From Patescibacteria group bacterium (GTDB lineage Bacteria; Patescibacteriota; Microgenomatia; Levybacterales; UBA12049), in NCBI GenBank assembly GCA_026004395.1, contig BPJB01000001.1, positions 649,226-713,225 on the forward strand: DNA of 64,000 nucleotides. Direction: 5' to 3'. Below are positions 9,296 to 38,200 of this stretch, in pieces (the stretch's first letter is position 1; each line of letters opens with the position of its first letter). The position numbers and the translations under genes were made by a program. The notes beneath the pieces were generated by a model that was not told the DNA's origin, did no database searches, and worked only from the letters and a program-made list of their open reading frames with translations.

Positions 9296-9299
9296 ATTT

Positions 9300-15776: not shown

Positions 15777-16331
15777 TTATAATACAGCGCACCAGTAGCA
15801 GTCAGCAGAGCCTCCTTTTGATTTGCACGTTGCTGATGTGGGAGTACCGTCAATACCGTAAATTGTATTGGCATCTCTCTGTTGTGCTTTTGATTGAGGT
15901 TTGTAGCAGGCTGTTACAGTATTTGTTGATCCTGTGAAATAAATCTCTTTGATAATATTTGTTGCTGTATTATAACCAGTTTTAAGCTCTCCATCACTTA
16001 TCAAAGCCTGAACACATGTAGTTCCACCATCAACAGAAGAGTTCAAATTAACCGAAACTGCATTATAATCATTACCTGAGCAACCCAAATAACCTCCCTC
16101 ATTAGTACTAGCCCATGGCATACCATTATGTGTAGTAAAGTAGCGAAGATTTGCATTGATAAACTCAACTGTACTATTTTTTACATTTGAATCTTGGGCT
16201 TTTTTCAGTTGCTCAAAAGGATCAATTGTGGCAATGAGAGCTGATGCAAGAATACCTAAAATTCCAATAACAACTAAAAGCTCTATAAGTGTGAATCCTT
16301 TTGAAAGTGATTGAATTCGGGCAGTTATCAT
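15777..16331 (-). CDS. pilA: Type IV pilin (major pilin candidate)
   Basis: Short leader MITARIQSLSKG|FTLIELLVVIGILGILA. It has its own AT-rich upstream region. Confidence 0.8.
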   Translation of the reverse strand: MITARIQSLSKGFTLIELLVVIGILGILASALIATIDPFEQLKKAQDSNVKNSTVEFINANLRYFTTHNGMPWASTNEGGYLGCSGNDYNAVSVNLNSSVDGGTTCVQALISDGELKTGYNTATNIIKEIYFTGSTNTVTACYKPQSKAQQRDANTIYGIDGTPTSATCKSKGGSADCYWCAVL

Positions 16332-17914: not shown

Positions 17915-17920
17915 ATTTCT

Positions 17921-21441: not shown

Positions 21442-21864
21442 ATGCAATCAAATGAAGATAATACAATTCAGGGTAGGACAGTACAGGGGACATCCGCAAA
21501 CCGTAAAATTCTTATTATTGATGATGATCTCTATATCCGTGATCTCTATGAAGAAGTATTAAGAGATGATGGTTTTAATGTTGAAACAGCTGTAGATGGT
21601 GAAGAGGGACTGATGAAACTCCAAAAAGGAGGATATGATCTTGTACTTCTTGATGTAATGATGCCCAAACGAGATGGATTAGGAGTGTTAACAGAGCTTG
21701 CACTTCATCCACCTCAAACACCAAACGGACCAATCATCGTTCTAACCAATCTTGGACATGATCCTATTATTAAGGAAGCTATGAGCAAAGGAGCAGCATC
21801 GTATCTAAATAAAGCTGATATGACACCTGATCAGCTATTGGCGAATATCAAGAAGTTTCTTTAG
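21442..21864 (+). CDS. Single-domain response regulator (CheY-like receiver)
   Basis: KILIIDDD...DLVLLDVMMPKRDG...K receiver motifs with no output domain. Confidence 0.8.
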   Translation: MQSNEDNTIQGRTVQGTSANRKILIIDDDLYIRDLYEEVLRDDGFNVETAVDGEEGLMKLQKGGYDLVLLDVMMPKRDGLGVLTELALHPPQTPNGPIIVLTNLGHDPIIKEAMSKGAASYLNKADMTPDQLLANIKKFL

Positions 21865-22961: not shown

Positions 22962-24038
22962 ATGAAAATATTGTTTCTAACTCGTTTTTTCTATCCTCAC
23001 ATAGGTGGAGTAGAGAAGCATGTTTATGAAGTTGGGAAAAGACTTTTAGAGAAAGGTCACACTGTTACTATTCTGACGGAGCAAATTCCCCTGACAAGTA
23101 TACAGGTATATCAGTCAAATGATGAAAGTGCTAAGTTAATGGACAAAACTGAAAAATTTAGAATATATTGGGTACCCGTAGGAGAGGAGAATTGGTTCAA
23201 AAAATTTCGGATCTGGAAATGGTTATGGCAAAATAGACATCTTCTCAAGGATGCTGATATAATTCACTGTCATGATGTTTTTTTCTGGTATCTTCCCTTT
23301 AAATTCCTCTATCCCAACAAAAAAGTTTTTTTAACTTTTCATGGATATGAAGGAAATACTATTCCCGGTTTGAAAGCAAAATTTTGGCACAAAATAGGTG
23401 AAATTCTCACTAATGCCAATATTTGTGTTGGCAGTTTTTATAAAAAATGGTATGGAACAAAAGCCACCAAAATCATTTATGGAGGAACAAATCTTCCATT
23501 TCAAAGGCAATATATTTCCGAGAGTATAAAAAAAGCTGTTTTCATCGGAAGACTCGAAGAGGAGACAAGTATCATGCAGTATCTCCAGGCATTGAATCTA
23601 TTAAAGAAAGAGAAGAATATAGTAAGACTTACTATACTTGGTGATGGATCATTAAGAAAAAAAGCAGAAGAATTTGTAAAGAAAAATAATCTACCAGTAA
23701 CCTTTCAAGGATTTGTTAATGATACTGAACAGTATATAACTAAATCTGATATTGTTTTTGCTTCGAGATATCTAGCTATATTGGAAGCATTCGCTCATAA
23801 GAAATATGTTATTGCTCATTATAATTCACCCATTAAAAAAGATTATTTGCAGGCAACACCTTTTGCCAAATGGATAACGATTGCTAGTAACAGTAAGGAA
23901 ATTGCTCAACAAATTAGAGAATATACAAAAAATCTTGATCAGATAAAAAAGAAAATTAACCTTGCATATGAATGGGTAGAAAACCAAAAATGGGATGATG
24001 TTGTATCTATCTACGAAAATCTTTGGAGAGGAAAGTAG
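22962..24038 (+). CDS. Glycosyltransferase family 1/4 (GT-B)
   Basis: N-terminus MKILFLTRFFYPHIGGVEKHV is typical of GT4. Confidence 0.7.
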   Translation: MKILFLTRFFYPHIGGVEKHVYEVGKRLLEKGHTVTILTEQIPLTSIQVYQSNDESAKLMDKTEKFRIYWVPVGEENWFKKFRIWKWLWQNRHLLKDADIIHCHDVFFWYLPFKFLYPNKKVFLTFHGYEGNTIPGLKAKFWHKIGEILTNANICVGSFYKKWYGTKATKIIYGGTNLPFQRQYISESIKKAVFIGRLEEETSIMQYLQALNLLKKEKNIVRLTILGDGSLRKKAEEFVKKNNLPVTFQGFVNDTEQYITKSDIVFASRYLAILEAFAHKKYVIAHYNSPIKKDYLQATPFAKWITIASNSKEIAQQIREYTKNLDQIKKKINLAYEWVENQKWDDVVSIYENLWRGK

Positions 24039-24040: not shown

Positions 24041-25177
24041 TTATTTTTGTGTAATTGTGTTAATAGTATTTATAATGTAATCTATCTCCTCAGATGTCAA
24101 TTTAGGATATAAAGGAATTGTTATTGTAGATGCACCAATTTTTTCAGCAATCGGAAAGTCACCTTTTTTGTATCCGTATTTCTTTTTATAGTAACTCATA
24201 AGGTGAATGGGTCTGAAGTTGACTGCTACTCCTATCATTCTCTCTTGCAGTGAACGGAGGATATTATCACGTTTTTTCGGGTCAACCCATATTGTATAAA
24301 TATGACGGGCATGCTTGGTGCTGGGAAGTACAGATGGGATTGATATAAAAGGATTTTTTTTAAATGCTTTATCGTATCGTTTAGCTATTTTTTCTTTCTT
24401 TTTTAGCAATTCTTCTATCCTGTCTAGCTGATTAAGAAGCAGAGCAGCTTGAATATTGTTCATATTGGCTTTGAATCCTAGAAATTCCATATCGTAATGT
24501 TCATATTTTTTGGTATAGCGCTCACTTGCGCTCTTAGACATGCCATGTTGTCTTGCACGAAGAAGCCAACTGTAGAAATCTTTATTATTGGTAACTACTG
24601 CTCCTCCTTCTCCTGATGTGATATTCTTGGTTGCGTAAAAACTAAAACACGCCGCATCAGAAAGTTGACCAGGTCGTATACCATCTCGAACACCCTCAAT
24701 ACAATGTGCAGCGTCTTCTATCAATTTAAGAGAGTGTTTTTTAGCAATTGCTGCTATCTTCTGCATATCGCACATTTGACCATATAAGTGAACTACTACC
24801 AACGCTTTTGTTTTTGGCGTAATGGCTTTTTCAATCTTATCTGCGTCAATATTGCCCGTTGTTGATTCAACATCAACAAATACAGGTTTGGCACCACAAT
24901 ATTCGATAACATTTGCAGTTGCTATAAAAGAAAGAGGAGTTGTAATCACCTCGTCTCCTTCTTTAACTCCTAATCCTTTTAGCGCTAAAAAAAGTGCATC
25001 TGTGCAAGAAGTGACCCCTACTGCATAACGTATGTCAAGATAGTCAGCTAATTTTTCTTCAAATTCCTTGACTATGGATCCAGTTGTCAGGAAAAGCGAG
25101 TTCAAAACCTCTACACATTCTTTAATATCAATTGAAGAAATATTGTGTCTATAAAATTCAATTTTTTTATTTCTCAT
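24041..25177 (-). CDS. DegT/DnrJ/EryC1/StrS-family PLP-dependent sugar aminotransferase
   Basis: Fold-type I aminotransferase with ...FSFYATKNITSGEGGAV..., which includes the catalytic Lys context. Confidence 0.85.
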   Translation of the reverse strand: MRNKKIEFYRHNISSIDIKECVEVLNSLFLTTGSIVKEFEEKLADYLDIRYAVGVTSCTDALFLALKGLGVKEGDEVITTPLSFIATANVIEYCGAKPVFVDVESTTGNIDADKIEKAITPKTKALVVVHLYGQMCDMQKIAAIAKKHSLKLIEDAAHCIEGVRDGIRPGQLSDAACFSFYATKNITSGEGGAVVTNNKDFYSWLLRARQHGMSKSASERYTKKYEHYDMEFLGFKANMNNIQAALLLNQLDRIEELLKKKEKIAKRYDKAFKKNPFISIPSVLPSTKHARHIYTIWVDPKKRDNILRSLQERMIGVAVNFRPIHLMSYYKKKYGYKKGDFPIAEKIGASTITIPLYPKLTSEEIDYIINTINTITQK

Positions 25178-25178
25178 A

Positions 25179-26204
25179 TCAAAACAAGCGATTGCGAATT
25201 TTTACTGATGACAAAATCGAGTCTGCTTCTAAAAGGTAGCGATAATACCACATTGTGTTTGTTTTGATGTCTTCTGTAATTTCTCCTTTTTCCAGAGCTT
25301 CTTTAACCTCAAGAATTCCCTCATCTACTGATACTTTGGGATGAAATGCAAGCGTTTGTTTAATCTTATCAAAACTTACCTTATAACTTCTTTGATCAGG
25401 ATCATCAGGTGTCTCCTCAATAATAAGATCTTGAAAATGGCTTTTAATTTTAGTTGCAATCTGACGAACTTGATAATTCTGTTCATTTGATCCAACGTTG
25501 AAGATCTGTTTATTAATTTTTTTAATATCCTCTTCAACCATTATTCGATGAAACGCTTCGATAACATCACTTATATGAATAAGTGGACGCCATTGTCTTC
25601 CTCCTCCCATAATAAAAATTTTATTGTTTTTCCATGCATGAAGAGTCATAATATTAATTAGAAGATCAAATCTCATTCTACGCTTAGATACACCAAAAAC
25701 TGTAGAAATTCTAGGAATAGTTACGATAAAATTATTATCCGCTAAAAGAAGTAGTTTTTTTTCCGCTGAAATTTTTGATTTGGCATATTCTGAGAGTGGC
25801 GAAGTAGGAGATTGCTCAGAGAGAGTTCCTTGCCCTGCTCCATACACACTGCATGAAGATGCAAAAATATAGCGTTTTACACCTGCTTCTTTTGCAACTC
25901 TTGCTAATTTTACCGCACCAAAATCATTAATTGATTTAGTAATCTTTGGATTTAAAGCTGCTGAAGGATCATTGGAAATTGATGCTAGATTAATAACAAC
26001 GTCAACTCCTTTTAGAAGTTCTGTATTTAAAAACCTAATATCACCTTTGATAATTTTAAGCCGTTTATTTTTTGAGAGATCCTGCAGAGTGCTGCCGAAA
26101 AAGAAGCGATCAAGAGCTACGATATAGTATCCTCTCTTAAGAAAGTCTTCTACCATCTCTGTACCGATATATCCACCTGCTCCTGCAACAAAAACAGTCT
26201 TCAT
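25179..26204 (-). CDS. NAD-dependent nucleotide-sugar epimerase/dehydratase (extended SDR)
   Basis: GAGGYIG Rossmann motif and a YxxxK context. Confidence 0.8.
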   Translation of the reverse strand: MKTVFVAGAGGYIGTEMVEDFLKRGYYIVALDRFFFGSTLQDLSKNKRLKIIKGDIRFLNTELLKGVDVVINLASISNDPSAALNPKITKSINDFGAVKLARVAKEAGVKRYIFASSCSVYGAGQGTLSEQSPTSPLSEYAKSKISAEKKLLLLADNNFIVTIPRISTVFGVSKRRMRFDLLINIMTLHAWKNNKIFIMGGGRQWRPLIHISDVIEAFHRIMVEEDIKKINKQIFNVGSNEQNYQVRQIATKIKSHFQDLIIEETPDDPDQRSYKVSFDKIKQTLAFHPKVSVDEGILEVKEALEKGEITEDIKTNTMWYYRYLLEADSILSSVKIRNRLF

Positions 26205-27040
26205 AAGGAAATGCTTCTTTTTCTTAAAACATAAAGTTTTTGAATTCCAAAATCTCCAGAGTTTTCTGTTTCTGAGAAAGTAGCAAAAAAATTATTTATA
26301 TCATTAATATATGTGTCTTTATCCTGTTTTGTCATTGTCAAATACCTGAGAAATCGTGATGCCACGTAATAAATACTGGAGAATTTTTTGATTTCCACTA
26401 TATCAAAATACTTTTGCAGAAATTTTTCTGTTTTTCTTTCTTCCAGATACAGATTAAAATCATGAACTGTTAATGGGGGAAGATTCGCTAACACTCGCAA
26501 TTTATTTAAATTCCTTAGGCTTCCCATAAAAGCCTCTGACATGAGGAACAAACCACCTGGTTTAAGAACTCTATGCATTTCTTTTATTGCTCTTTTTTGA
26601 AGATTCCAGGATAGAAGATTTATAATAACTCGAATCGTATAAACTTTATCAAATGTATTATCGGATTCATCAATATTAAGGATATTTCCATGATAAAATT
26701 TGATTTTTCTTTCCTTATCTTTCTCATGTTGTGCAGAGATTGCATACTTAATTGATTTTTTACTATAATCAAAAGCTCTTACTTTTATATTGCGAGCTGA
26801 TGCTATTGCAAATGTCGAATATCCATTTGAACAACCGGCATCCAAAACATAATCTCCGTCATCAATATAGTTGAGAATATTTTTTATTTCGAGTTGAATC
26901 ATATTGGCGTCTCCCCAAGATACAGAATGAGAGGTTTTGTATTTAGCAGCGTTCTTTTCCCAATATGAATGGTTGAATTTTGAACGTTGAAGATCTTTTT
27001 GTTTGAGTGTCATTTTAAGTGCTAGTTGATTTTGACCCAT
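26201..27040 (-). CDS. Class I SAM-dependent methyltransferase
   Basis: VLDAGCSNGYST motif I. Confidence 0.7.
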   Translation of the reverse strand: MGQNQLALKMTLKQKDLQRSKFNHSYWEKNAAKYKTSHSVSWGDANMIQLEIKNILNYIDDGDYVLDAGCSNGYSTFAIASARNIKVRAFDYSKKSIKYAISAQHEKDKERKIKFYHGNILNIDESDNTFDKVYTIRVIINLLSWNLQKRAIKEMHRVLKPGGLFLMSEAFMGSLRNLNKLRVLANLPPLTVHDFNLYLEERKTEKFLQKYFDIVEIKKFSSIYYVASRFLRYLTMTKQDKDTYINDINNFFATFSETENSGDFGIQKLYVLRKRSISL

Positions 27041-27045
27041 AGTAT

Positions 27046-27966
27046 TTAAAGCTCTGATTTAATTATATAGAGTGGTCTATTTTTATTCTCAATATAAAGC
27101 CTACCCACATATTCACCAATAATAGCAAGTATTATAATTTGCATGCCTCCAAGAATTACTAGTATTGCTGCAAATATTTCTAAAGGATTTATTAAACCAT
27201 TATATGCAATTTTGCGAAAAATAATAAATACAATAAAAAGAAAATCTAATAAGAGAATAGCTCCACCTACTTTCAAAAAAAAATGCAAGGGATAAGCAGA
27301 GTATGCAAAAATTGCATCAAGAGCCAAATTTAGCTGTTGCGATAGTGTATATTTGGTCTTACCTTTATATCGTTTTCCGTGTTCAACAGGTTGGGGTGCA
27401 TGATTAAATCCTACCCAGCCAATAATACCAACTAAATACCTATTACTTTCTCTCAAACTTCTAACTTCCTGTATTACTTGTTTAGTTGCTATACGGAAAA
27501 TTGTCGAGTTAATGACTATTTTTTCTTTAATTAAACGACGCATCAATACATTGAAGAGGTATGATGAAAACCTTTTGAAAAAACCAAATTTTTTATTTTT
27601 TCTTATTGCGTATACTACGTCATATCCTTCTTGGAGTTTTTTATACAATTTTATAATCTCTTCTGGCTGATCCTGAAGATCTCCATCCATCATTACGATG
27701 ATATCTCCTGTTGTTTTATCTAATCCAGCTGAAATAGCAATCTGATGACCAAAATTACGAGATAATTGGATAACTTTTACACTAGGATCTTTTTTGTGAA
27801 GCTTCTTAAGTTCATTAAAAGTGTTATCCGTACTACCATCATCAATAAAAATAATTTCTCTTTGAAATTTGGGAAAATCTTTTTTGAGAGCTTTATCAAT
27901 TCTGGAATATAATACTGTTATAACTTCAGATTCATTAAAAACAGGAATTACAAGAGATATTTTCAT
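27046..27966 (-). CDS. GT2 polyprenol-phosphate glycosyltransferase (ArnC/DPM1-like)
   Basis: N-terminal GT-A domain (IPVFNE...IDDGSTD...DGD) and C-terminal TM helices. Confidence 0.8.
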   Translation of the reverse strand: MKISLVIPVFNESEVITVLYSRIDKALKKDFPKFQREIIFIDDGSTDNTFNELKKLHKKDPSVKVIQLSRNFGHQIAISAGLDKTTGDIIVMMDGDLQDQPEEIIKLYKKLQEGYDVVYAIRKNKKFGFFKRFSSYLFNVLMRRLIKEKIVINSTIFRIATKQVIQEVRSLRESNRYLVGIIGWVGFNHAPQPVEHGKRYKGKTKYTLSQQLNLALDAIFAYSAYPLHFFLKVGGAILLLDFLFIVFIIFRKIAYNGLINPLEIFAAILVILGGMQIIILAIIGEYVGRLYIENKNRPLYIIKSEL

Positions 27967-29720
27967 ATTTTAAAGAAATATTTTACTCTATTTGCCAATA
28001 AAATATAAAGAATTATAAAACAAGCGGTGATCCAAGCAATTATTGATATGATTTGACTTATTTGTTGAATTTTTAGCGGTATATACAAAACATCTAATTT
28101 ATATAAACCTTTTACGAGATTAAATGTCATTATTCCTTGATATTTGGGATCATTATAATCTACTCTGATGGGTCTATTATTAGCATAAACATACCATCCA
28201 GGAAAGTAAAGAGTATTTTCTTTAAAGCGAGTAGGCATATGAACACTAACAACATATTCGCGTTTTGTTGATGTATTTGACAGCTCGACAATAGACGCAT
28301 TACCTTCTATAACCTCAAGATTTTTGGCTGGGATTTCTTTTTGCCAGAGGTTCTTAGGATCAAGCCACTTTGGTGCAGCTGGTCCACCGCCTTCACCTGC
28401 AAAAGTACTCAAGGAAAGTTGATTTTCAAAATATAAATCTGATGCTATCTCGGGAATAGTCCTTCTATTGCCCCAATTAAGAATTGTTGAAAGCACTGCA
28501 AATGCTATTAAACTAATAAACAATATCTTATTTTTGATTTTCATTGTTACAATTCCTGCAATGCCCGCTGTTATAAAACTCATTAGTAAAAGCATTCTAT
28601 ATGAAAACTGCAGATTTTCAATAAGAGGAATCAGCGACCATAACGGCTTTGATATTGACTGCATGAGGAAAAAAATAATCAAAAAGAACACTAAGAAAAA
28701 ATATACTATTAGCTTATTACTTGCAAATGATCTTTTCTTGATTAGAAATATAACAAGAAGTATGACAACAGTTAGTTGTGCATAACCAATAATAAATGAT
28801 AGTTCGCCTTTGCTACCTTGAAAAAGTAATCCATATCGCCACGGTGAATAAATAAATTCTTGTATTTGTGGAAAAAGAACTTCATGATGAAAATATTTTT
28901 GCAAAGTGTATTTTCCCAAAGTTATTTCTGGAAGCCAATAAAAAAGAGAGAGAAGAAGACCAAAGATGAAAGAAAAAAGAAGCTTAATAATATTTTTCCA
29001 ATACTTATTTTCTTTGTATAAAAGTAATATGCTATAACAGATGACAAATGGTAAAAGTATAAGAGCGATAGGATGAGAAAGAATGAGTAATCCTATTGAT
29101 ATAGCCAAGGTTAAAATCCAGATTAGATTTGATTTGTGGATAACTTTTTTGGTCGCTAACATACTTAATGGAAAAAACATAAATGCAATAACTTCTCCTG
29201 GATTAGCGCGGAAATGCAAATCAACAAGATGATAAGGGCTATAAAGATAAAAAACAGACGCAATAAATCCGGGTAATTTTCCAAATTCTTCCTTTGCCCA
29301 ATAGTACATTGTTATCCCAGATCCTATGAATGATAACGCAAGTAATAATTTTAAGCTATTTAAAAAAGAAACCCCTAAAAAATGAAAGAAAGAGGTAATA
29401 TAATAGGGGAGAGGAGGAGCAAAAATAAAAAGGGGGTATCCATAAGTTGCATTCAACTTACCTGCCCATTGTGGAAAGAATATTCCCTCTTGAAGGCTAT
29501 GAAAAAATGCAATAGCCCTATACGTATGGAGCGACAAATCTCCACTCTCATAAGTTCCTTTTCTAAAAATACTGATAATAGGTGGAAGAGAGAAAATAAT
29601 CACGAGAAACAAGAAATTAATCTTTTGTTTCTTGCGTAATTTTAAATAAAAGTATGAAATTGTTGCTAAGATAATAACTGCTATAAGATTAACAACAATC
29701 ATCTTGTATGGCTGATACAT
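27963..29720 (-). CDS. Multi-pass membrane protein, putative GT-C-fold glycosyltransferase (ArnT/PMT/YfhO-like)
   Basis: More than 12 TM helices, an N-terminal loop with the DLSLHTYR motif, and a C-terminal soluble domain. Translationally coupled to the GT2 gene. Confidence 0.45.
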   Translation of the reverse strand: MYQPYKMIVVNLIAVIILATISYFYLKLRKKQKINFLFLVIIFSLPPIISIFRKGTYESGDLSLHTYRAIAFFHSLQEGIFFPQWAGKLNATYGYPLFIFAPPLPYYITSFFHFLGVSFLNSLKLLLALSFIGSGITMYYWAKEEFGKLPGFIASVFYLYSPYHLVDLHFRANPGEVIAFMFFPLSMLATKKVIHKSNLIWILTLAISIGLLILSHPIALILLPFVICYSILLLYKENKYWKNIIKLLFSFIFGLLLSLFYWLPEITLGKYTLQKYFHHEVLFPQIQEFIYSPWRYGLLFQGSKGELSFIIGYAQLTVVILLVIFLIKKRSFASNKLIVYFFLVFFLIIFFLMQSISKPLWSLIPLIENLQFSYRMLLLMSFITAGIAGIVTMKIKNKILFISLIAFAVLSTILNWGNRRTIPEIASDLYFENQLSLSTFAGEGGGPAAPKWLDPKNLWQKEIPAKNLEVIEGNASIVELSNTSTKREYVVSVHMPTRFKENTLYFPGWYVYANNRPIRVDYNDPKYQGIMTFNLVKGLYKLDVLYIPLKIQQISQIISIIAWITACFIILYILLANRVKYFFKI

Positions 29721-29763
29721 ATTTCTTATTGTAGATTGAGATTATAGTTGAGCGCAAGAAAAT

Positions 29764-30726
29764 ATGAAATATATATCCTTTGTTACTACTGTCTATAACG
29801 AAGAGAATACTATCTCATCTCTCTTAGAATCGCTTTTTAATCAAACCCGTCTTCCAGATGAGGTCATAATTGTTGATGGCGATTCTCAAGACAATACTGT
29901 CAAAAGAATACGCAACTTTTTATCAACTCTTCCTAAAAATAAAAACCTTCCTAGAGTACATCTTATTAGTAAACCATGTAATCGCTCTGAAGGAAGGAAT
30001 TTGGGTATTAAAATGGCAAAAGGTGAAATAATTGCGTTGACTGATGCCGGATGTATACTTGATAAACATTGGATTGAAAGAATAATTAAACCATTTGCAA
30101 ATAACTCAGTTGATGCAGTTGCTGGATATTACGCAGGAAGGTATCAGACTATTTTTCAGCAATGCCAAATTCCTTACTTTTTAGTTATGCCAGACAAGGT
30201 CAATCCACAAAATTTTCTTCCCGCTACACGATCTATGGCAATAAAAAAACAAGTATGGAAGGAACTTGGAGGATTTCCAGAAGAATATTCTCACAATGAA
30301 GACTATGTGTTTGCAAAGAAATTAAAAAAGATGGGTAAAAAGATCGCTTTTGCAGGGGATGCAATTGTTTATTGGCTTCCTAAAAAGACACTTAAGGATT
30401 GTTTTCTTATGTTTTTCAGACACGCATATGGTGATGCTGAAGCACGGATATTACGGCCAAAAGTTGTCATACTTTTTATCCGATATGTTTTTATCATAAG
30501 TATCTTTATCGTTGGACTTATAAAGTACAACCAAGCACTTCTATTAGGAGCTGGAGCAATTCTGATCTATATTGTCTGGTCAATTCAGAAAAATATTCGC
30601 TACTGTTATCGGATAAAGTCTCTGCTTTATCTTCCAATACTCCAGTTTACTGCAGATTTTGCTGTTATAACAGCAACTATTGCAGGCATTTTCTTAAAAA
30701 GAAAAATAAAAAGAGGACGTATATAG
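29764..30726 (+). CDS. Glycosyltransferase family 2
   Basis: VYNEENTIS...IVDGDSQDNT...TDAG GT-A motifs. Confidence 0.8.
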   Translation: MKYISFVTTVYNEENTISSLLESLFNQTRLPDEVIIVDGDSQDNTVKRIRNFLSTLPKNKNLPRVHLISKPCNRSEGRNLGIKMAKGEIIALTDAGCILDKHWIERIIKPFANNSVDAVAGYYAGRYQTIFQQCQIPYFLVMPDKVNPQNFLPATRSMAIKKQVWKELGGFPEEYSHNEDYVFAKKLKKMGKKIAFAGDAIVYWLPKKTLKDCFLMFFRHAYGDAEARILRPKVVILFIRYVFIISIFIVGLIKYNQALLLGAGAILIYIVWSIQKNIRYCYRIKSLLYLPILQFTADFAVITATIAGIFLKRKIKRGRI

Positions 30727-30752
30727 GATTTAAGTAGAGTATAATTACCTGT

Positions 30753-31973
30753 ATGGGATATCGTTTTCAGGCTGTAAAAGGAATATCGTGGATAGGAACA
30801 CTGCGTATTACAACAAGAATCTTAGCGTTTTTCCGTTATGCCATACTGGGGCGTATCCTCACACCATATGATTTTGGTCTTTTTGGAATAGCATCACTTT
30901 TATTATCTTTCCTAGAAATCATTACTGAAACGGGAGTCAACATTGTTCTTATTCAGCAAAAAAGTGATATAAAAAAGTATTTTCATTCAGCATGGATTGT
31001 CTCAATTGTGAGAGGGATTGTGCTATCTCTACTTATAATTTTATGTGCTCCTCTAATTGCAAATTTTTTTAATGCAACAGCTTCCTATCCGATTATTATT
31101 GCAATCGCACTCGTTCCTTTTATTAGGGGATTTATCAACCCGGCGATTGTACTTTTCCATAAAGAGCTACAATTTCAAAAAGAGTTTTGGTTTAGATTTA
31201 TACTATTTGCCGTTGATACTTCTACAGCAATTATTATCGCATTTTTAACTAAGAGTGCACTGAGTTTCGTAGGTGGACTTATTGCATCTGCAGTTGTTGA
31301 AGTTATAGGTTCATTTTTAATTGTAAAACTTCGTCCGAAGTTAAGATTTGAAGTAAAGAAAATAAAATACATTTTACAGAGAGGATGGTGGGTAACAATA
31401 ACGGGAGTATTTTCTTATATTGCAGATCAAGGAGATAATATTATTGTCGGAAGGTTGTTGGGTACGAGTGCTTTGGGTATTTATCAAATAGCATATAAAA
31501 TTTCAACACTTACTATTACTGAAATTACTGATGTTGTAAACAAAGTCGTTTTCCCAGTTTATGTCAAATTCGCAAATGACAGAAAACGCTTGCTCACAGC
31601 TTTCTTAAAGGTGACAGGCGTGACATCATTGGGTGCGCTGGTAATTGCGTCAGGTTTATTCATTTTCGCTCATGAGATTATTCTTCTACTTATGGGACAG
31701 CAATGGCTTGAGGCTGTTCCAGTTATCAAAATCTTAGCAATCTACGGATTTCTGAGAACACTTTTCGGTAATTTAGCACCAGTATTCTTAGCAATTGAAA
31801 GACAAGATTATATAGCTAAAATGACCTTTTTTAGAGTTATGGGTTTGTTGATTACAATTATACCATTTGTTATATTTTATGGATTAGCCGGAGCGGGTTT
31901 TTCAGCTCTTGCTTCCATAATTGCTGAAATACCAATAGCATTATACTTTTTGGTAAAAACATTTCATAAATAA
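30753..31973 (+). CDS. Polysaccharide/oligosaccharide flippase (MOP superfamily, Wzx-like)
   Basis: About 12 TM helices with the typical Wzx/RfbX layout. Confidence 0.7.
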   Translation: MGYRFQAVKGISWIGTLRITTRILAFFRYAILGRILTPYDFGLFGIASLLLSFLEIITETGVNIVLIQQKSDIKKYFHSAWIVSIVRGIVLSLLIILCAPLIANFFNATASYPIIIAIALVPFIRGFINPAIVLFHKELQFQKEFWFRFILFAVDTSTAIIIAFLTKSALSFVGGLIASAVVEVIGSFLIVKLRPKLRFEVKKIKYILQRGWWVTITGVFSYIADQGDNIIVGRLLGTSALGIYQIAYKISTLTITEITDVVNKVVFPVYVKFANDRKRLLTAFLKVTGVTSLGALVIASGLFIFAHEIILLLMGQQWLEAVPVIKILAIYGFLRTLFGNLAPVFLAIERQDYIAKMTFFRVMGLLITIIPFVIFYGLAGAGFSALASIIAEIPIALYFLVKTFHK

Positions 31974-31975
31974 CT

Positions 31976-33082
31976 ATGAATATAGCATTTTTTCACGAAC
32001 TGCATTTTGGTGGAGCTAGAAGAGTAGTTGGTGAATATGGAAAAGTAATGCGTAAGAATCATAGAGTTGATTTATTTTACTCAACAGCAGGAAGGGAAGA
32101 AGATTTTGAAAAAATATTTCATAATACCTATTGGTATAAGTATGTCTCTCCGACTTATTCAGGAAATAATTTTTTAACAAAACTTTATAAAGACTTTATC
32201 GAACCTATAAAATTATATTTTCACCACAAAAAAATTGCCCAGGAGATTGATAAAAAAAAGTACGATTTTGTTTTTGTTCATTTATCTCAATATACACATG
32301 CGCCTTTTATACTCAGATTTTTAAAAACTCCATCAGTTTATTTTTGTCATGAACCTTTAAGAATTGCTCATGATTCAATAGTAAGTATTCCAAAAGACAT
32401 ATCATTCATAAAAAGAGTTTATGAACAGATAATAAGAAGAGTTCGAAAAGAAATAGATGCTTCAAATATTAAACATGCAAATCTTGTTCTTGCAAATTGT
32501 ATATATTCACAAAAAAATATTCAAAAAGCATACGGTATAAAATCGTTTGTCTGTTATTTGGGAGTTAATAATCATCTTTTCAAACCGATAAAAATAAAAA
32601 AAGAATACGATTTACTCTTTGTTGGATCTGACGTATGGATGGAAGGATTTGATACTCTTCAAGAAATAAATAAAATTTTTAATTATTCACTGAAGATAAA
32701 GATTATAAAAAAACAAAAAGGAAAATATATTTCAGATGCTGAATTAGTTAATGAGTATAACAAAGCAAAACTTGTTATTGTATTAGGTCGATTTGACCCC
32801 TTCAGCATGATCCCGCTGGAAGCAATGGCTTGTAAAGTCCCTCCTCTTGTTGTTAAAGAAGGCGGACCAGTTGAAGCCGTAGAAAATGGTATAGATGGAT
32901 TTCTGATTGAGCGAGATCCACAACAATTTGCTAAAAAAATTAAAGAATTACTTGAAAACGACACTAAAAGAAAGATTATTGGAAACAATGGTCGTCAAAA
33001 GATTGAATCATTTTGGAATTGGGAGAAAAGTACTGAAAGACTGCTAAATATATTAAGAACACAAGGATTAATTTCAGTATAA
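31976..33082 (+). CDS. Glycosyltransferase family 1/4 (GT-B)
   Basis: C-terminal ...MIPLEAMACKVPPLVV..G motif. Confidence 0.75.
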   Translation: MNIAFFHELHFGGARRVVGEYGKVMRKNHRVDLFYSTAGREEDFEKIFHNTYWYKYVSPTYSGNNFLTKLYKDFIEPIKLYFHHKKIAQEIDKKKYDFVFVHLSQYTHAPFILRFLKTPSVYFCHEPLRIAHDSIVSIPKDISFIKRVYEQIIRRVRKEIDASNIKHANLVLANCIYSQKNIQKAYGIKSFVCYLGVNNHLFKPIKIKKEYDLLFVGSDVWMEGFDTLQEINKIFNYSLKIKIIKKQKGKYISDAELVNEYNKAKLVIVLGRFDPFSMIPLEAMACKVPPLVVKEGGPVEAVENGIDGFLIERDPQQFAKKIKELLENDTKRKIIGNNGRQKIESFWNWEKSTERLLNILRTQGLISV

Positions 33083-33083
33083 A

Positions 33084-34235
33084 ATGAATAAATCACTCCA
33101 CATTGCTGTTATTCAACAATCACCTGATATTGGAGGAGCCGAAACATTTATGTGTTCCCTTGTTACGGAATTTTTAAAACAAGGACATACAGTTTGTCTT
33201 GCAACAGATTCTGAAAAGTATGCTAAGTTGTATAAGAATCTTAAAGTAACAATAAATAAAATTCCTTTCATTTTAGATATTAGCGGAAATTGGAAAGGTT
33301 TAGTCAAGTCAATTTTACGTTTGCCTATTGCTATTGCTTACTACAGTTCTCTGTTGAGATCCTACAAAAATAACAATGTTCATCTTATTCTAATGAGTGG
33401 CTTCAGCGAAAAACTTTTAGTATCTTTCCTTACATTATTTATAAAAATCCCCGTTGTCTGGATAGAATACGGTCCGTTAGCACCGATAATCAAAAGGAAT
33501 TTTTCATTACCATTCGTTTTGTATACACTAATATCCAAAATACCAAAGAGAATTATTGTTCCAACAGAGAATACCAAAAAAAGTCTTCTCAATGATATTT
33601 ATATTGCACCTTCTAAAATAATTGTTATTCCTTGTGGAATAGTTCTGCACAAAAAGAAACATAATCGAAAGAAGCCAAAGTACCTAAAAAATAAAATTGT
33701 TATAGGAAATGTATCACGACTGACACGAGAGAAAGGACAACAGCTTCTCATCAATGCAATGCCTGATATATTGAGTAAAAATCCTCAAGTACATCTTTTA
33801 TTAGTTGGTGATGGTCCTGATAAAGAGTATTTTTCAGAGTTAATAAAGAAGTTGAATATTAGTAAGTCGGTAACTCTTACCGGATTTGTAAAAAATACTG
33901 ATGACTACTATAGACAGATGGATATTTTTGTTTTTCCAACTATTTGGCCGCTAGAAGGGTTTGGGTTGGTAATGGTTGAGGCAATGGATTATGGACTTCC
34001 TATTATTGCACATAATAGTGGTCCTGTTCCGGAAATAGTGAAGAACAATAATACCGGACTATTAGTACCTTTGGATGATAAAAATGCTCTAATATATGCA
34101 ATTCTTTCTTTGGTAACTAATCAAGCGTTGCGTGAAAGATTGGGGGGTGCAGGGAGACGAAGAGCTGTGAATCTGTTTGATATTGAAAAAATTTCAAAAA
34201 AATATGAAAAAGTTTTCTATGAAGCAATTTCTTAA
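33084..34235 (+). CDS. Glycosyltransferase family 1/4 (GT-B)
   Basis: EGFGLVMVEAMDYGLPIIAHNSGP EX7E motif. Confidence 0.8.
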   Translation: MNKSLHIAVIQQSPDIGGAETFMCSLVTEFLKQGHTVCLATDSEKYAKLYKNLKVTINKIPFILDISGNWKGLVKSILRLPIAIAYYSSLLRSYKNNNVHLILMSGFSEKLLVSFLTLFIKIPVVWIEYGPLAPIIKRNFSLPFVLYTLISKIPKRIIVPTENTKKSLLNDIYIAPSKIIVIPCGIVLHKKKHNRKKPKYLKNKIVIGNVSRLTREKGQQLLINAMPDILSKNPQVHLLLVGDGPDKEYFSELIKKLNISKSVTLTGFVKNTDDYYRQMDIFVFPTIWPLEGFGLVMVEAMDYGLPIIAHNSGPVPEIVKNNNTGLLVPLDDKNALIYAILSLVTNQALRERLGGAGRRRAVNLFDIEKISKKYEKVFYEAIS

Positions 34236-35658
34236 TTTTCGTCAAAGCTTTAATGTTTTGCAGATTAGCGTATATATTCTTCTGTTTGGATTTTACTCAG
34301 TTAATTTGGCATCGCAGATGGTATTTATCGGTGATCAAGGCTGGTTCTATCTATCAGCTAAAGATCTGCTTCTTGGTAAAGAATTTCCCCTTGTGGGAAT
34401 ACCCTCTAGCCATCCTTGGCTGCATCAAGGAGCTTATTGGACATATCTGCTGGCGATTGCCTTAGCAATTGGGCGATTTGATCCAATAGCAGGCGGATAT
34501 ATGGGGATACTTTTTGGGATACTAGGAGTAGCTGCAGTATACTTTGTGACAAAAAAGTTTTTTACGAGAAAAGCAGCTTTTATTGCAACACTTCTCTATG
34601 CCACATCTCCATTAGTTGTAGCTCATGCTAGGATGCCATATCATACAACACCAATTCCATTTTTTACGACTCTTTATATTTACTCTCTTTTACAATGGAT
34701 AAAAGGAAAAGTAATTTTTTTCCCTATCTCCTTATCACTTTTAGCAATACTTTATAATTTTGAAATTGCAACAGTATTGTTAGTTTTCCCTTTTCTTTTA
34801 ATTGCTGCTTATGGTTTGATTAAAAAAACTAAATGGTTTATTCCTATTTTAAATAAAAAAATAATCTTCACTTCATATGGAGCAATTATTTTGCCTATGA
34901 TTCCGATGCTACTTTTTGATCTAGAACATGGCTTTCCACAAACTTTAAAATTTATCGCTTGGGTAGGCTATAGAATATTAGTATTACTTGGTTATCCTCC
35001 TTTGCATCCGGAAATACCATCACCTAGTAAAGAGTTTTTTTATATTTTTAGCCTTGATAAATTAACTTATTATTTTTTACCCAGTAATACTTACTTAGCA
35101 ATTTTAATTTTTTTAGGTATTATCATCGGCTCAACTGTTTATACAATAAAATCGCTTTTTGCAAGTAAAATAAATACATCTTTTTTAATTATTTATTTGA
35201 TCACAATTTGCTCATTATTAGGATATGTTATCAACCAAACTCCTTCTGAAGCATATCTGCCAATTCTTTTTTCTCCACTGATGATGCTTGCTGGATTTTT
35301 GGCAAATGTAATTATTAAAAAAAGGGGGTTTTTTTATCCTACTTTGGTTGCTGTTTCAATAATCGTTATAACCAATATTATTTTTATTTGGAAAGTTCAT
35401 TCAATAGAGAATCAAGCAGGTATCACTTTTAGACAAAGAATGGAGGTTGTTGAAAAAATAATAAAAAAAATTGGCAAAAGACCCTACTCACTGCATGCGA
35501 TAGGGGAGGGTAGTCAGTTTGAATCGTTTCTGGATAATTATAGATATTTGCTATGGTGGAAAAAATATCCTCCCTTACCTAATCCACAAAAAATACAAGT
35601 TGTTTTAAAAGAAGAGAAAAATAAAATACAAATTATTTATAAAGGTATAAAAGAGTAA
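34177..35658 (+). CDS. Multi-pass membrane GT-C-fold glycosyltransferase (ArnT/PMT_2-like)
   Basis: N-terminal loop DQGWFYLSAKDL and about 12 TM helices. The true start is probably the Met at 34204 or 34219. Confidence 0.5.
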   Translation: MILKKFQKNMKKFSMKQFLNFRQSFNVLQISVYILLFGFYSVNLASQMVFIGDQGWFYLSAKDLLLGKEFPLVGIPSSHPWLHQGAYWTYLLAIALAIGRFDPIAGGYMGILFGILGVAAVYFVTKKFFTRKAAFIATLLYATSPLVVAHARMPYHTTPIPFFTTLYIYSLLQWIKGKVIFFPISLSLLAILYNFEIATVLLVFPFLLIAAYGLIKKTKWFIPILNKKIIFTSYGAIILPMIPMLLFDLEHGFPQTLKFIAWVGYRILVLLGYPPLHPEIPSPSKEFFYIFSLDKLTYYFLPSNTYLAILIFLGIIIGSTVYTIKSLFASKINTSFLIIYLITICSLLGYVINQTPSEAYLPILFSPLMMLAGFLANVIIKKRGFFYPTLVAVSIIVITNIIFIWKVHSIENQAGITFRQRMEVVEKIIKKIGKRPYSLHAIGEGSQFESFLDNYRYLLWWKKYPPLPNPQKIQVVLKEEKNKIQIIYKGIKE

Positions 35659-35686
35659 TATCCTTAATTTGATACAATAGAAGCAA

Positions 35687-36469
35687 ATGCAAACAAGTAT
35701 ATCAGCGGTAGTTCTCACAAAAAACAGTGAAAATACTTTATCTACATGTCTGGATTCACTACAATGGTGCAAAGAAATAATTATTATTGATGATAACTCA
35801 TCTGATAAGACGATAGAAATTGCAAAAAAGTATAATACAAAAATATTTATTCATCCACTCAATAAGAATTTTTCAGAACAGAGAAATTTTGGATTATCGA
35901 AAGCATCATTTGACTGGGTTTTCTTCGTTGACTCTGATGAAGTTATTTCTAAAGAACTAGCAGATGAAATTCATCAGCAGATTGAACAGTTTTATCCCCA
36001 GTTTCAAGCTTTTGCTATACAAAGACAAGATTTTTTGTGGGGAAAAAGATTGAGATTTGGTGATACTCAAGAAAAATATTTCATCAGATTAGGAAGAAAA
36101 GAAAAAGGTAAATGGAGCGGTAAAGTACATGAGGTATGGAATATAATGGGTAAAATCGGTCGTTTGAAAAATCCAATTTACCATTATCCACATCCAAACA
36201 TTTCAGAGTTTTTATCAGACATTAATTACTATTCCTCCTTGAGAGCTGAAGAGCTGTATGAAAAAAAAATAAAATCTTCATCTATTGATATTGTTTTTTT
36301 TCCACTTATCAAGTTAATCTATCTTCTCGTTATAAGACAAGGAGTAAGAGATGGTGTTGCGGGCATAGTACATGCACTTATGATGAGTTTCTATTCATTT
36401 TTAGTCCGAGGAAAGCTCTATCTTTTATGGAAAAATCAACGCCAATCTCTGAACTGGGAAGTCAGTTAA
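35687..36469 (+). CDS. Glycosyltransferase family 2
   Basis: VVLTKNSENTL...IIDDNSSDKT...DSDE GT-A motifs. Confidence 0.8.
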   Translation: MQTSISAVVLTKNSENTLSTCLDSLQWCKEIIIIDDNSSDKTIEIAKKYNTKIFIHPLNKNFSEQRNFGLSKASFDWVFFVDSDEVISKELADEIHQQIEQFYPQFQAFAIQRQDFLWGKRLRFGDTQEKYFIRLGRKEKGKWSGKVHEVWNIMGKIGRLKNPIYHYPHPNISEFLSDINYYSSLRAEELYEKKIKSSSIDIVFFPLIKLIYLLVIRQGVRDGVAGIVHALMMSFYSFLVRGKLYLLWKNQRQSLNWEVS

Positions 36470-36588
36470 ATAAGATTTTTTCTCTATGAAACAGTGGATT
36501 TCAATAGTTACTTTTCTCTGGTCAATACTTTTAGTGCTAATTTATATTAGTCATCTTGTTATAAAAAATATTCGTTAGATAACAAAAT

Positions 36589-38193: not shown

Positions 38194-38200
38194 TCAAATT

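Follow-up and report, generated by a model that had tools for sequence, protein, structure and literature searches.

Extracytoplasmic glycosylation by a three-component scheme is well established, with Gtr, Arn and related systems as examples (PMC11127046). In GtrA/GtrB/Gtr* of Shigella and Salmonella, CsbB-GtcA-YfhO and GtlA/GtlB of Firmicutes and PgfS/PgfM of Streptococcus mutans, a GtrB-type GT2 glycosyltransferase with two C-terminal transmembrane (TM) helices stands beside a GT-C-fold transferase, and the sugar is unmodified Glc, GlcNAc or Gal from the general pool. The Arn pathway (ArnB, ArnA, ArnC, ArnD, ArnE/F, ArnT), which places 4-amino-4-deoxy-L-arabinose (Ara4N) on lipid A, oxidises, transaminates and N-modifies its sugar, loads it on undecaprenyl phosphate, flips it and transfers it with a GT-C enzyme. 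In Pseudomonas aeruginosa, the GT-C enzyme TfpW glycosylates type IV pilin from polyprenol-phosphate-arabinofuranose (bioRxiv 10.1101/2020.04.19.049825).

Our analysis concerns an operon of an uncultured bacterium with a Levybacteria-like (CPR/Patescibacteria) genome, within a 64-kb stretch of DNA that we refer to as the window. Judging from its sequence, it is probably an extracytoplasmic glycosylation module of the three-component type, by which a methylated amino sugar would most likely be made, loaded on a membrane lipid carrier and attached to a cell-surface molecule. The scheme as such is already well known, but the variant seen here is built from uncharacterised enzyme families. According to the ORF listing, five intact minus-strand ORFs fill positions 24041-29720 (Table 1), and the Pfam and NCBIfam matches agree with the product classes given in the preliminary description for every domain. 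The stop/start overlaps described there as running throughout are present as ATGA at two of the four junctions (GT-C to GT2 and methyltransferase to SDR), whereas the other two are gaps of 5 nt (GT2 to methyltransferase) and 1 nt (SDR to aminotransferase). No terminator-like site was found on the minus strand within the five-gene block. The 43-bp intergenic region upstream is presumed to be the promoter region of both divergent operons; it overlaps a single minus-strand promoter-like site (29768-29741), though such sites are no commoner than chance. The five-gene set recurs in identical order in five further lineages (L001/L002/L086, L014, L090, L166, L167), and hence the genes have not come together by chance.

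Table 1. Features of the operon and its immediate surroundings in the window.
Feature	Position	Strand	Basis or remark
GT4 glycosyltransferase, convergent with the operon	22962..24038	+	Pfam; right-hand boundary of variable slot
DegT/DnrJ/EryC1 PLP-dependent nucleotide-sugar aminotransferase (AT), 378 aa	24041..25177	-	Pfam
Extended SDR, 341 aa	25179..26204	-	Pfam Epimerase/SDR, PDB match
Class I SAM-dependent methyltransferase (MT), 279 aa	26201..27040	-	Pfam
Polyprenol-phosphate GT2, GtrB/ArnC/PgfS type, 306 aa	27046..27966	-	PDB and NCBIfam matches
GT-C-fold glycosyltransferase, 585 aa	27963..29720	-	Pfam PF10131 (PTPS_related)
Divergent intergenic region, 43 bp, between GT-C operon and GT2/Wzx operon	29721..29763		Coordinates
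Conserved divergent glycan operon	29764..39397	+	Pfam, synteny across loci

Two C-terminal TM helices are a hallmark of polyprenol-phosphate-sugar synthases, and the GT2 (Glycos_transf_2, 110 bits) has two such hydrophobic helices, at residues 226-244 and 253-271, as well as an intact catalytic D94xD96 motif (D94-G-D96). Its best NCBIfam matches are PgfS (224 bits) and ArnC (171 bits). In the PDB search, residues 2-303 align end to end with GtrB (5EKP, E 1e-60) and ArnC (9HWJ, E 5.6e-44), membrane helices included; for soluble and processive GT2 enzymes, by contrast, the match is limited to the first ~100-150 residues, with E values of 1e-8 or worse. The enzyme had been described as ArnC/DPM1-like with a C-terminal membrane anchor, a description that these data bear out; the grouping with soluble processive synthases that had been named as counter-evidence is not what we found.

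We know of no characterised member of PF10131. The 585-aa protein matches this family at 61 bits (cutoff 26.4), along with PMT_2 and, weakly, YfhO, all of them in the GT-C clan, in which PF10131 is listed with unknown function (PMC7801869). Besides ~13 TM helices it has a C-terminal beta-sandwich outside the membrane (~467-545) and a last TM helix at 549-583. Its AlphaFold model is confident (pLDDT 87.2, pTM 0.89), and the significant Foldseek matches to the PDB are GT-C enzymes exclusively (AglB, STT3, ALG12, AftD, ArnT, Pmt4, Emb, PglB, DPY19). The first extracytoplasmic loop (EL1) carries an acidic motif, R53-x-G55-x-Y57-E58-S59-G60-D61, which is invariant across the family and forms a putative catalytic loop. 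The preliminary description had made its reading depend on GT-C-like catalytic loops in this protein, and both the fold matches and the EL1 motif support their presence. Homologues number more than 490, the named ones coming from Levybacteria and other CPR.

The SDR (Pfam Epimerase/SDR, 132 bits) has intact GAGGYIG and YAKSK motifs and a Ser-Tyr-Lys triad (SSCSVYG ... YAKSK). In a motif alignment, the window-type motif SSCS[V/I]YG goes along with the lack of both the Asp-Glu pair typical of 4,6-dehydratases and the Glu that UXS/ArnA decarboxylases have, which refines the earlier label "epimerase/dehydratase". Its best PDB match by far is 6VO6 (E 1.4e-38, 136 bits, residues 2-308); the next ones reach 89 bits or less, and this second tier consists of UDP-GlcA and UDP-GlcNAc 4-epimerases (MoeE5, 6ZL6, 6WJB). 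The 6VO6 chain maps at 96% to the cluster of a C. jejuni SDR of 313 aa, and that cluster's representative (P0238) shares 34% identity with the window SDR over 314 residues. We take 6VO6 to be Cj1427, with which organism and length agree, and the C. jejuni relative is probably this C4 oxidase. Recycling of the C4 oxidase Cj1427 by alpha-ketoglutarate has been described (PMC7949155, PMC10680097). Sister cassettes (62% identity in the methyltransferase, 65% in the aminotransferase) have an RmlB-like, keto-sugar-forming SDR in the same position. We thus infer that the enzyme provides a keto-sugar by dehydrogenating an NDP-sugar at C4 (or C3), though with 4-epimerases as the next-best PDB matches the enzyme could also be a 4-epimerase. 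Because the decarboxylation signature is missing, a hexose and not a pentose would be expected. The aminotransferase is a clear DegT_DnrJ_EryC1 protein (404 bits) with its catalytic Lys in SFYATKN; NCBIfam returns PseC (371 bits, under the cutoff of 423.5) and ArnB (269 bits), and its PDB matches are QdtB, ArnB and perosamine synthase.

The methyltransferase (class I, Methyltransf_31/25/11) has an intact LDAGCSNG motif and belongs to a small, distinct family of ~117 clusters whose C-terminal half is conserved and family-specific. Of 39 loci with a member of this family, 37 have a DegT sugar aminotransferase next to it and 25 an ArnC-like GT2. Because of the former linkage, N-methylation is favoured, and the sugar amino group would most likely be the methyl acceptor. 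Furthermore, the partner aminotransferase varies in subfamily (PseC/ArnB-like or WecE-like), as would be expected if the amino group accepts the methyl. The proposal that the sugar is possibly N-methylated therefore draws on gene association and gains nothing from homology: profile and fold searches match nothing beyond the generic methyltransferase core, sugar N-methyltransferases are absent from the sequence and fold matches, which return O-, N- and C-methyltransferases alike, and neither TylM1 nor DesVI is found in the 21 sequence matches, the best 60 of 110 profile matches or the best 50 fold matches. Two sugar O-methyltransferases, RebM and AtmM, rank with the best sequence and fold matches.

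Within a glycan locus that is conserved in Levybacteria (Wzx, GT2, GT-C, GT4), the GT-C belongs to the core genes, a point missed in the preliminary description. The divergent operon encodes a soluble-type GT2 of 320 aa (GT2_320), a Wzx-type flippase, two GT4s, a PMT_2 GT-C (493 aa), a further GT2, a second PMT_2 GT-C (534 aa) and a Wzy_C-domain protein, and in most of 78 loci a convergent GT4 homologue is found downstream of this gene's counterpart. The other four genes (GT2-MT-SDR-AT) form an accessory cassette, which occupies the variable slot between GT-C and GT4, is seen in six lineages only and there always directly follows the GT-C. About 90% of the surveyed PF10131 GT-C loci have neither the cassette nor an adjacent polyprenol-phosphate GT2, and hence the GT-C is in general independent of the cassette's donor. 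In a distance tree of 96 family members, the cassette-linked GT-Cs of the six lineages form one clade (bootstrap 56/100), whereas monophyly does not hold at these loci for the flanking genes (GT4, GT2_320 and Wzx), and so GT-C and cassette were apparently co-inherited. Two residues are specific to this clade, as against 0-7 in clades of comparable size. The cassette builds on a GT2-MT-aminotransferase unit that is widespread in many other bacteria, often without any SDR, and in 3 of 10 non-CPR loci tested this unit is directly followed by a PMT_2 GT-C. The glycan island of the window is embedded in a cluster of type IV pilus genes, which lie more than 10 kb from the operon; flanks differ at other cassette-bearing loci (L166). 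A gene for a TMEM260-like protein lies beside a pilin gene.

In the pathway that we propose, the SDR would oxidise an available NDP-hexose at C4 (C3 being less likely) to an NDP-keto-hexose, with neither dehydration nor decarboxylation, and the aminotransferase, whose family is clear, would presumably convert this to an NDP-amino-deoxy-hexose. The methyltransferase would then methylate the sugar, most likely at the new amino group, to go by the near-obligate gene linkage. From its family and architecture, the GT2 is predicted to load the product on polyprenol phosphate on the cytoplasmic side of the membrane. A flippase would move the lipid-linked sugar across the membrane; a crude scan of the 64-kb window gave no flippase candidate for a polyprenol-phosphate-monosaccharide. 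Finally, the translationally coupled PF10131 GT-C, with its GT-C fold and loop, may pass the sugar to an extracytoplasmic acceptor, most likely a glycopolymer or glycoprotein of the surrounding locus.

The window holds three further GT-C genes, and the cassette's lipid-linked sugar might be used by another GT-C (the 493-aa or 534-aa PMT_2 protein or the TMEM260-like one), with the 585-aa enzyme having a separate conserved job on a housekeeping lipid-linked donor, e.g., as polymerase, ligase or side-chain transferase of a Wzx-dependent glycan. This would fit the occurrence of its family in ~78 loci, mostly without cassette or adjacent polyprenol-phosphate GT2, the lack of a residue signature above background in the cassette-linked clade, and the pairing of the GT2-MT-AT unit with PMT_2-type GT-Cs outside CPR. 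We nonetheless regard it as unlikely, given that the GT-C stop overlaps the GT2 start, that the cassette directly follows the 585-aa-type GT-C in all six lineages, and that only the cassette-linked GT-Cs, not their flanking genes, are monophyletic. A different chemistry within the same scheme also has a rather low probability in our estimate: the SDR would be a 4-epimerase (or act after transamination), enzymes encoded elsewhere would supply the keto-sugar, and the methyltransferase would act on oxygen, so that polyprenol phosphate would carry an O-methylated amino sugar. The second-tier epimerase matches, the resemblance of SSCSVYG to epimerase motifs, the standing of RebM and AtmM and the many SDR-less units are in its favour, but 6VO6 is far ahead as SDR match, the sister cassettes have a keto-sugar-forming SDR in the same place, and the partner that the methyltransferase retains is an aminotransferase of varying subfamily.

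That the methyltransferase-SDR-aminotransferase trio also occurs in O-antigen-like loci without ArnC-like GT2 or GT-C (L083, L084), and that Wzx and several GT4/GT2 genes are nearby, could point to an ordinary cytoplasmic GT2 that attaches the amino sugar to a repeat unit carried on undecaprenyl diphosphate and flipped by Wzx, with no polyprenol-phosphate-monosaccharide and no GT-C transfer of that sugar. The full-length GtrB/ArnC match with its two C-terminal helices, set against the partial coverage by soluble enzymes, makes this very improbable. A genuine Arn pathway, which would put 4-amino-4-deoxy-L-arabinose onto lipid A, is effectively refuted: the models for ArnB, ArnC and the ArnA C-terminus do match, at 269, 171 and 54 bits, but far under their curated cutoffs of 631, 529 and 777; Pfam/NCBIfam profiles and a window scan found no formyltransferase, ArnD/deformylase, ArnE/F or ArnT; the SDR lacks the decarboxylase Glu; ArnT resembles the GT-C, a PF10131 protein, only remotely in fold (TM 0.36); and the host lineage, Levybacteria/CPR, has to our knowledge no lipid A.

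Of the known systems, the Gtr/CsbB/Pgf group shares with the operon its pair of GtrB-type GT2 and GT-C-fold transferase, the window GT2 being most similar to GtrB and PgfS and the GT-C retaining its weak YfhO match. Unlike these systems, the operon has a built-in SDR-aminotransferase-methyltransferase tailoring unit, its GT-C is PF10131, and no GtrA/GtcA-type flippase was found in the window. With Arn it has in common the order of steps and an aminotransferase and GT2 homologous to ArnB and ArnC, but the place of the formyltransferase is taken by a methyltransferase. The analogy to the Arn and PMT pathways drawn in the preliminary description thus holds as logic and not as membership. The homology shown between TfpW and the window GT-C is that of the GT-C fold. 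TfpW uses a lipid-monophosphate sugar donor, as the window GT-C would, and acts on a protein acceptor outside the membrane; the pilus setting of the island recalls TfpW, and the distance of the pilus genes and the differing flanks are points of difference. The GDP-heptose C4 dehydrogenase Cj1427 (MlghA), presumably the closest solved relative of the SDR, likewise lacks the dehydratase acid/base pair; it differs in sequence and in the ~35-residue C-terminal extension of the window SDR, and the enzymes that follow it are epimerases and reductases instead of a transaminase. By analogy to the WbpB/WbpE oxidase-transaminase couple, pairing with the aminotransferase would supply alpha-ketoglutarate to recycle the NADH of the SDR. 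The window methyltransferase stands in a separate family from the macrolide amino-sugar N,N-dimethyltransferases TylM1 and DesVI, with a conserved C-terminal half of its own; like them, it is a class I SAM methyltransferase encoded beside a DegT-family aminotransferase, a neighbourhood that hints at the sugar's amino group as the site of methylation.

The ORF listing places five minus-strand genes exactly where the preliminary description had put them, and Pfam and NCBIfam bear out its domain calls for all five products (see the table). In the order of transcription, these are a polytopic membrane protein (GT-C), a glycosyltransferase (GT2), a class I SAM methyltransferase (MT), an extended SDR protein (SDR) and a DegT aminotransferase (AT), and the catalytic motifs are intact in each of them. 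The overlapping stop and start codons that had been reported exist for GT-C/GT2 and MT/SDR (ATGA), but not for GT2/MT and SDR/AT, where gaps of 5 nt and 1 nt, respectively, are found. The block is delimited by a 43-bp divergent intergenic region on one side and by a convergent glycosyltransferase gene (GT4) that ends 2 nt away on the other, and the scan revealed no terminator-like site on the minus strand inside it. Neither promoter nor terminator signals rose above the level expected from shuffled sequence, promoter-like matches being no commoner than there. In its layout, the five-gene block behaves as one operon.

Features of the window discussed in the text, in order of position
Feature	Position	Strand	Length	Assignment
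Type IV pilus genes, left half	4076-10837			PilM, five or six pilin-like genes, PilD (prepilin peptidase)
TMEM260-like/PMT_2 GT-C	13757-15766	-	669 aa	Pfam
Pilin gene	15777-16331	-		N_methyl motif
Two tandem histidine kinases	16517-19402			GAF-HisKA-HATPase
Response regulator, stand-alone	21442-21864
AT	24041-25177	-	378 aa	DegT/DnrJ/EryC1, PF01041, 404 bits
SDR	25179-26204	-	341 aa	extended, 'Epimerase', Pfam 132 bits
MT	26201-27040	-	279 aa	class I SAM methyltransferase, Pfam
GT2	27046-27966	-	306 aa	best NCBIfam models PgfS 224 bits, ArnC 171 bits
GT-C	27963-29720	-	585 aa	polytopic, PF10131 (PTPS_related), 61.2 bits
Divergent intergenic region	29721-29763		43 bp
GT-C-type and Wzy_C proteins together	13757-15766, 27963-29720, 34177-35658, 36589-38193, 38150-39397			Pfam
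Ig-domain protein	39381-40091	-	236 aa	Glucodextranase-B/Big-like
tRNA-Thr(CGU)	40140-40213	-
Type IV pilus genes, right half	40399-44556			PilC, PilT, PilB
XerC/D-type tyrosine recombinase	54138-55079	-		Phage_integrase, 151 bits

GT-C matches Pfam family PF10131 over residues 102-411 (gathering cutoff 26.4 bits), with weaker matches to PMT_2 and YfhO, and its homologues carry PF10131 as precomputed annotation. This family is a member of the GT-C clan CL0111 with unknown function (PMC7801869). The homologues of GT-C, about 580 aa long, number more than 490, and the informative names among them all belong to Levybacteria and other Microgenomates/CPR. The protein has no match at all in NCBIfam, an exact-sequence look-up returned no record, and a phmmer search of the PDB gave nothing, such that structure prediction and a fold search were needed. 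With 25 homologues as input, AlphaFold gave a confident model (pLDDT 87.2, pTM 0.89), and its significant Foldseek matches in the PDB (AglB, STT3, ALG12, AftD, ArnT, Pmt4, EmbA/B, PglB and DPY19) are all GT-C enzymes. With TM-scores of only 0.36-0.47, GT-C is distant from all solved subfamilies. The model furthermore predicts a C-terminal extracytoplasmic beta-sandwich (residues ~467-545) that is tethered by the last TM helix.

Across the family, the motif R53-x-G55-x-Y57-E58-S59-G60-D61 (numbering including Met1) is almost invariant. It comes after a TM helix that is itself preceded by a Lys/Arg-rich loop, KLRKKQK, and by the positive-inside rule the motif thus faces outward. In GT-C enzymes, the catalytic acidic residues lie in the first extracytoplasmic loop (PMC11127046, PMC7801869). 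GT-C therefore has both the fold and the conserved acidic residues in this loop, in line with the GT-C features that had been expected of the 585-aa protein.

The GT2 protein has the architecture of a polyprenol-phosphate glycosyltransferase of the GtrB/ArnC/DPM1 type, namely a GT2 domain with a DxD motif followed by two C-terminal hydrophobic TM helices. In the PDB search, its residues 2-303 align with the polyprenol-phosphate glucosyltransferase GtrB (5EKP, E 1e-60), and the alignment with ArnC (9HWJ, E 5.6e-44) is likewise full-length, whereas DPM1 and synthase-type GT2 enzymes cover just the N-terminal ~100-150 residues. Hence, it falls outside the soluble and processive synthases, a grouping with which would have refuted the preliminary description. 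The GT2 and GT-C genes are linked genetically by their ATGA overlap, and their adjacency is kept in six lineages. GT2_320, a 320-aa glycosyltransferase that is the conserved divergent neighbor of GT-C, was also considered as the donor synthase, and we rejected it because it is a soluble-type GT2 and not GtrB-like in the PDB search.

With respect to the sugar that is made, the best PDB match of SDR by a wide margin is 6VO6, with 136 bits end to end (the next match has 89 bits). The 6VO6 chain maps to a 313-aa Campylobacter jejuni SDR cluster at 96% identity, and SDR is 34% identical to the representative of this cluster over 314 residues. 6VO6 is probably Cj1427, with which the match to the 313-aa C. 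jejuni cluster fits. Cj1427 oxidizes GDP-heptose at C4 and depends on alpha-ketoglutarate (PMC7949155, PMC10680097). The Ser/Tyr/Lys triad is present in SDR, which carries neither the Asp-Glu pair of 4,6-dehydratases nor the Glu of UXS/ArnA. From the 6VO6 match, the missing dehydratase and decarboxylase residues and the presence of a keto-sugar-forming SDR in sister cassettes, we infer that SDR is a non-dehydrating C4 (or C3) dehydrogenase that would feed AT. It is possible that it is a 4-epimerase instead, because 4-epimerases share with it both the triad and the missing Asp-Glu pair, and on account of these common features the activity is not assignable from sequence. If SDR is a dehydrogenase, its NADH could possibly be recycled by alpha-ketoglutarate from AT, by analogy to Cj1427 and to WbpB/WbpE. 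AT itself belongs to the DegT/DnrJ/EryC1 nucleotide-sugar aminotransferases and has the PLP-binding Lys in the sequence SFYATKN. It scores 371 bits against PseC, which is below the cutoff of 423.5, and comparably against ArnB, QdtB and perosamine synthase; its top PDB matches mix C3- and C4-aminotransferases.

MT belongs to a small family of ~117 clusters, and identities of 55-70% are kept in proteins whose source labels name other phyla. Its matches in phmmer, in a family-profile hmmsearch and in Foldseek were all of the generic class I kind, with O-, N- and C-methyltransferases alike, so the atom that accepts the methyl group is not assignable from homology. The sugar N,N-dimethyltransferases TylM1 and DesVI were absent from the 21 phmmer matches, the best 60 of 110 profile matches and the best 50 fold matches. 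In 39 metagenome loci with enough flank around MT, partners on the same strand within 2.5 kb were scored: a DegT aminotransferase accompanies MT in all but two of them (37/39), and an ArnC-like GT2 in 25. What favors a sugar N-methyltransferase is this near-obligate linkage to aminotransferases of different subfamilies, and such a function is possible by analogy.

The keto-sugar-forming partner of MT and AT varies between these loci. In window-type cassettes, the SDR motif is SSCS[V/I]YG. In another type (L083, L084 and similar loci), where MT is 58-62% and AT 64-65% identical to the proteins of the window, an RmlB-like SDR that has kept the catalytic Glu lies between the two genes (321 bits, cutoff 365), and L119-type loci lack an SDR, and their AT is a WecE-type dTDP-4-amino-4,6-dideoxygalactose transaminase (553 bits, cutoff 375). 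In L083 and L084, the MT-SDR-AT trio is situated among genes for a sulfotransferase, an APS kinase and large radical-SAM proteins, a setting that hints at sulfated, heavily tailored polysaccharides; a protein of L083 is labeled Omnitrophota. Many loci have a large polytopic protein directly after AT, and among ten of these that were tested, three turned out to be PMT_2 GT-C proteins and two MBOAT acyltransferases; the other five lack a significant match in Pfam. The GT2-MT-AT combination is thus widespread as a unit, and in some loci, though not in all, it is coupled to a GT-C enzyme.

How the unit sits beside GT-C was followed in 78 genome loci, which were retrieved with the GT-C alignment and scored with the proteins of the window. 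Their conserved layout has a Wzx-type flippase and GT2_320 divergent from GT-C, and GT4 convergent downstream. Besides the window, the GT2-MT-SDR-AT cassette lies between GT-C and GT4 only in L001/L002/L086, a close relative with 83-90% identity, and in L014, L090, L166 and L167, of which L090, L166 and L167 were found by routes other than the GT-C survey. In the remaining loci, this position is empty or taken by a different convergent DegT gene or by a second paralogue of GT-C. L166, which has the cassette, and L003 and L004, which do not, have a common chromosomal neighborhood (signal peptidase, ParB, L27, L21, FtsW), so the slot is variable and the cassette an accessory unit. In a neighbor-joining tree of 96 family members, the GT-Cs of the six cassette lineages form one clade, albeit with a modest bootstrap of 56/100, whereas no single clade is formed by the GT4, GT2_320 or Wzx proteins that flank them. 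The trees suggest joint inheritance of GT-C subtype and cassette within a mosaic locus, and a specialization of the cassette-linked GT-Cs is likewise suggested. At the level of residues there is no sign of donor specialization, since these GT-Cs have only two clade-specific residues, which is no excess over the 0-7 in clades of similar size.

A comparison of L001 (GCA_900174565.1, FWPU01000390.1) with the window shows 80-90% identity for GT-C, the cassette, the flanking GT4, GT2_320 and two PMT_2 GT-Cs, but, within 29764-35658, only 56% for Wzx and 37% for the next GT4. This mosaic pattern suggests that a segment was replaced by recombination. L001 furthermore has an extra Methyltransf_13/14 gene, and its counterpart of the 493-aa-type GT-C forms a 745-aa fusion with a GT2. 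In many Levybacteria loci (L007, L009, L011, L023, L026, L036 and others), the homologue of GT2_320 is encoded by a fused ORF of ~2.6 kb (up to ~870 aa), and two PF10131 GT-C paralogues occur in tandem or nearby. Many of the TPA MAG records among L005-L080 are titled 'uncultured Gammaproteobacteria bacterium'; the loci are otherwise typical of Levybacteria/CPR, and these titles look taxonomically unreliable.

The operon is part of a ~29-kb glycan island that lies between two halves of a set of type IV pilus genes, in a window with a GC content of about 33%. The plus-strand part of the island, which starts at 29764, encodes the soluble-type GT2, a Wzx-type flippase, two GT4s, a PMT_2 GT-C, a GT2, a second PMT_2 GT-C and a Wzy_C protein, and further left there are a GT2, a GT4, an FkbM methyltransferase, a TMEM260-like GT-C and a pilin gene. 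Altogether, the 64-kb window has four proteins of GT-C type, which belong to at least three Pfam families, and in addition the Wzy_C (O-antigen ligase/PglL-like) protein, presumably in a small CPR genome. The pilin gene and the TMEM260-like gene, which is 10 nt downstream of it, look like a candidate pilin O-glycosyltransferase pair that is separate from the operon. Between this pair and the glycan locus are the genes for the histidine kinases and the response regulator, the latter also kept beside the locus in L001. The Ig-domain protein is encoded between the Wzy_C gene and PilC, with the tRNA-Thr(CGU) gene adjoining, and the tyrosine recombinase gene lies among the housekeeping genes gyrB, gyrA, ppa, folD and that for transaldolase.

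As to what is decorated, the most economical candidate for the acceptor is the product of the surrounding glycan locus, because Wzx, GT2, GT4, the other GT-Cs and Wzy_C are the conserved neighbors of the operon. The Ig-domain protein may be secreted or surface-exposed and is hence another candidate acceptor. Pilin is a possibility as well, given the pilus genes in the window, with pilins at 5979-9406 and 15777-16331, and the precedent of TfpW (bioRxiv 10.1101/2020.04.19.049825), but these genes are more than 10 kb from the operon, and the left flank differs in other loci that bear the cassette. Type IV pilus synteny was found around GT-C homologues in none of 83 loci, with 10-kb flanks that are shorter than the pilus distance in the window itself.

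CPR/Patescibacteria are ultrasmall episymbionts whose surface chemistry presumably governs attachment to the host, and to our knowledge almost nothing is known about their glycans. In this context, the locus pairs, as a testable candidate, an uncharacterized GT-C family with hundreds of CPR members, PF10131, with a defined donor-synthesis cassette. This cassette is accessory and exchangeable within a surface-glycan locus of mosaic make-up, and such patterns are usually tied to antigenic or phage-receptor diversification. The GT2-MT-AT unit was seen in dozens of unrelated metagenome contigs; outside the CPR it is widespread and appears to be uncharacterized. A more far-reaching reading, which we regard as speculative and on balance improbable in its entirety, is that GT2-MT-AT constitutes a widespread, uncharacterized route to polyprenol-phosphate-linked N-methylamino sugars that was captured in Levybacteria by the PF10131 GT-C family. 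In that case, N-methylation may take the role that N-formylation has in the Arn pathway, pulling an unfavorable transamination forward and marking the sugar for GT2, and this family may have captured, for surface decoration, the unit together with a Cj1427-like, alpha-ketoglutarate-recycled oxidase. If true, PF10131 would thereby receive its first assigned donor, and the glycobiology of CPR surfaces would become more accessible. All five enzymes of the operon are small and open to heterologous study.

It remains to place the module among known systems. The preliminary description had called it Arn-like, and as pathway logic this holds: its interpretation is supported at this level and refined in several respects. 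Membership in the Arn family does not hold, since models, signatures, partner genes and ArnT all fail. Against the NCBIfam equivalogs, AT scores 269 bits for ArnB (cutoff 631), GT2 reaches its 171 bits for ArnC against a cutoff of 529, and SDR has 54 bits for the ArnA model (cutoff 777), with the motif SSCSVYG, which has no Glu, as compared to the STSEVYG type (Ser/Glu, Arg) of the C-terminal oxidative decarboxylase of ArnA, which acts on UDP-GlcA. The five proteins and those ORFs of the window that were scanned with Pfam contain neither an N-formyltransferase (ArnA N-terminus) nor a deformylase (ArnD), and a methyltransferase stands at the position of N-modification instead. ArnT is a distant fold match only (TMq 0.36). 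We thus rejected a genuine Arn/lipid A pathway, in which the transferase would be ArnT and not a PF10131 protein. A crude, ATG-only hydropathy scan of the 64-kb window for a small flippase (GtrA/GtcA or ArnE/F-EmrE) yielded no ORF of 60-200 aa with at least three hydrophobic helices. The flippase gene may lie elsewhere in the genome; in Firmicutes genomes, gtcA lies away from its partner genes. That a sugar is made, loaded on polyprenol phosphate, flipped and transferred by a GT-C enzyme is textbook logic, and our finding is therefore an extension of a familiar theme rather than a challenge to it. What we propose from the sequence is a concrete donor hypothesis for an uncharacterized CPR GT-C family within a conventional overall mechanism, in which the module would work like the Arn pathway and like the three-component systems GtrB/GtrA/Gtr*, CsbB/GtcA/YfhO and PgfS/PgfM.
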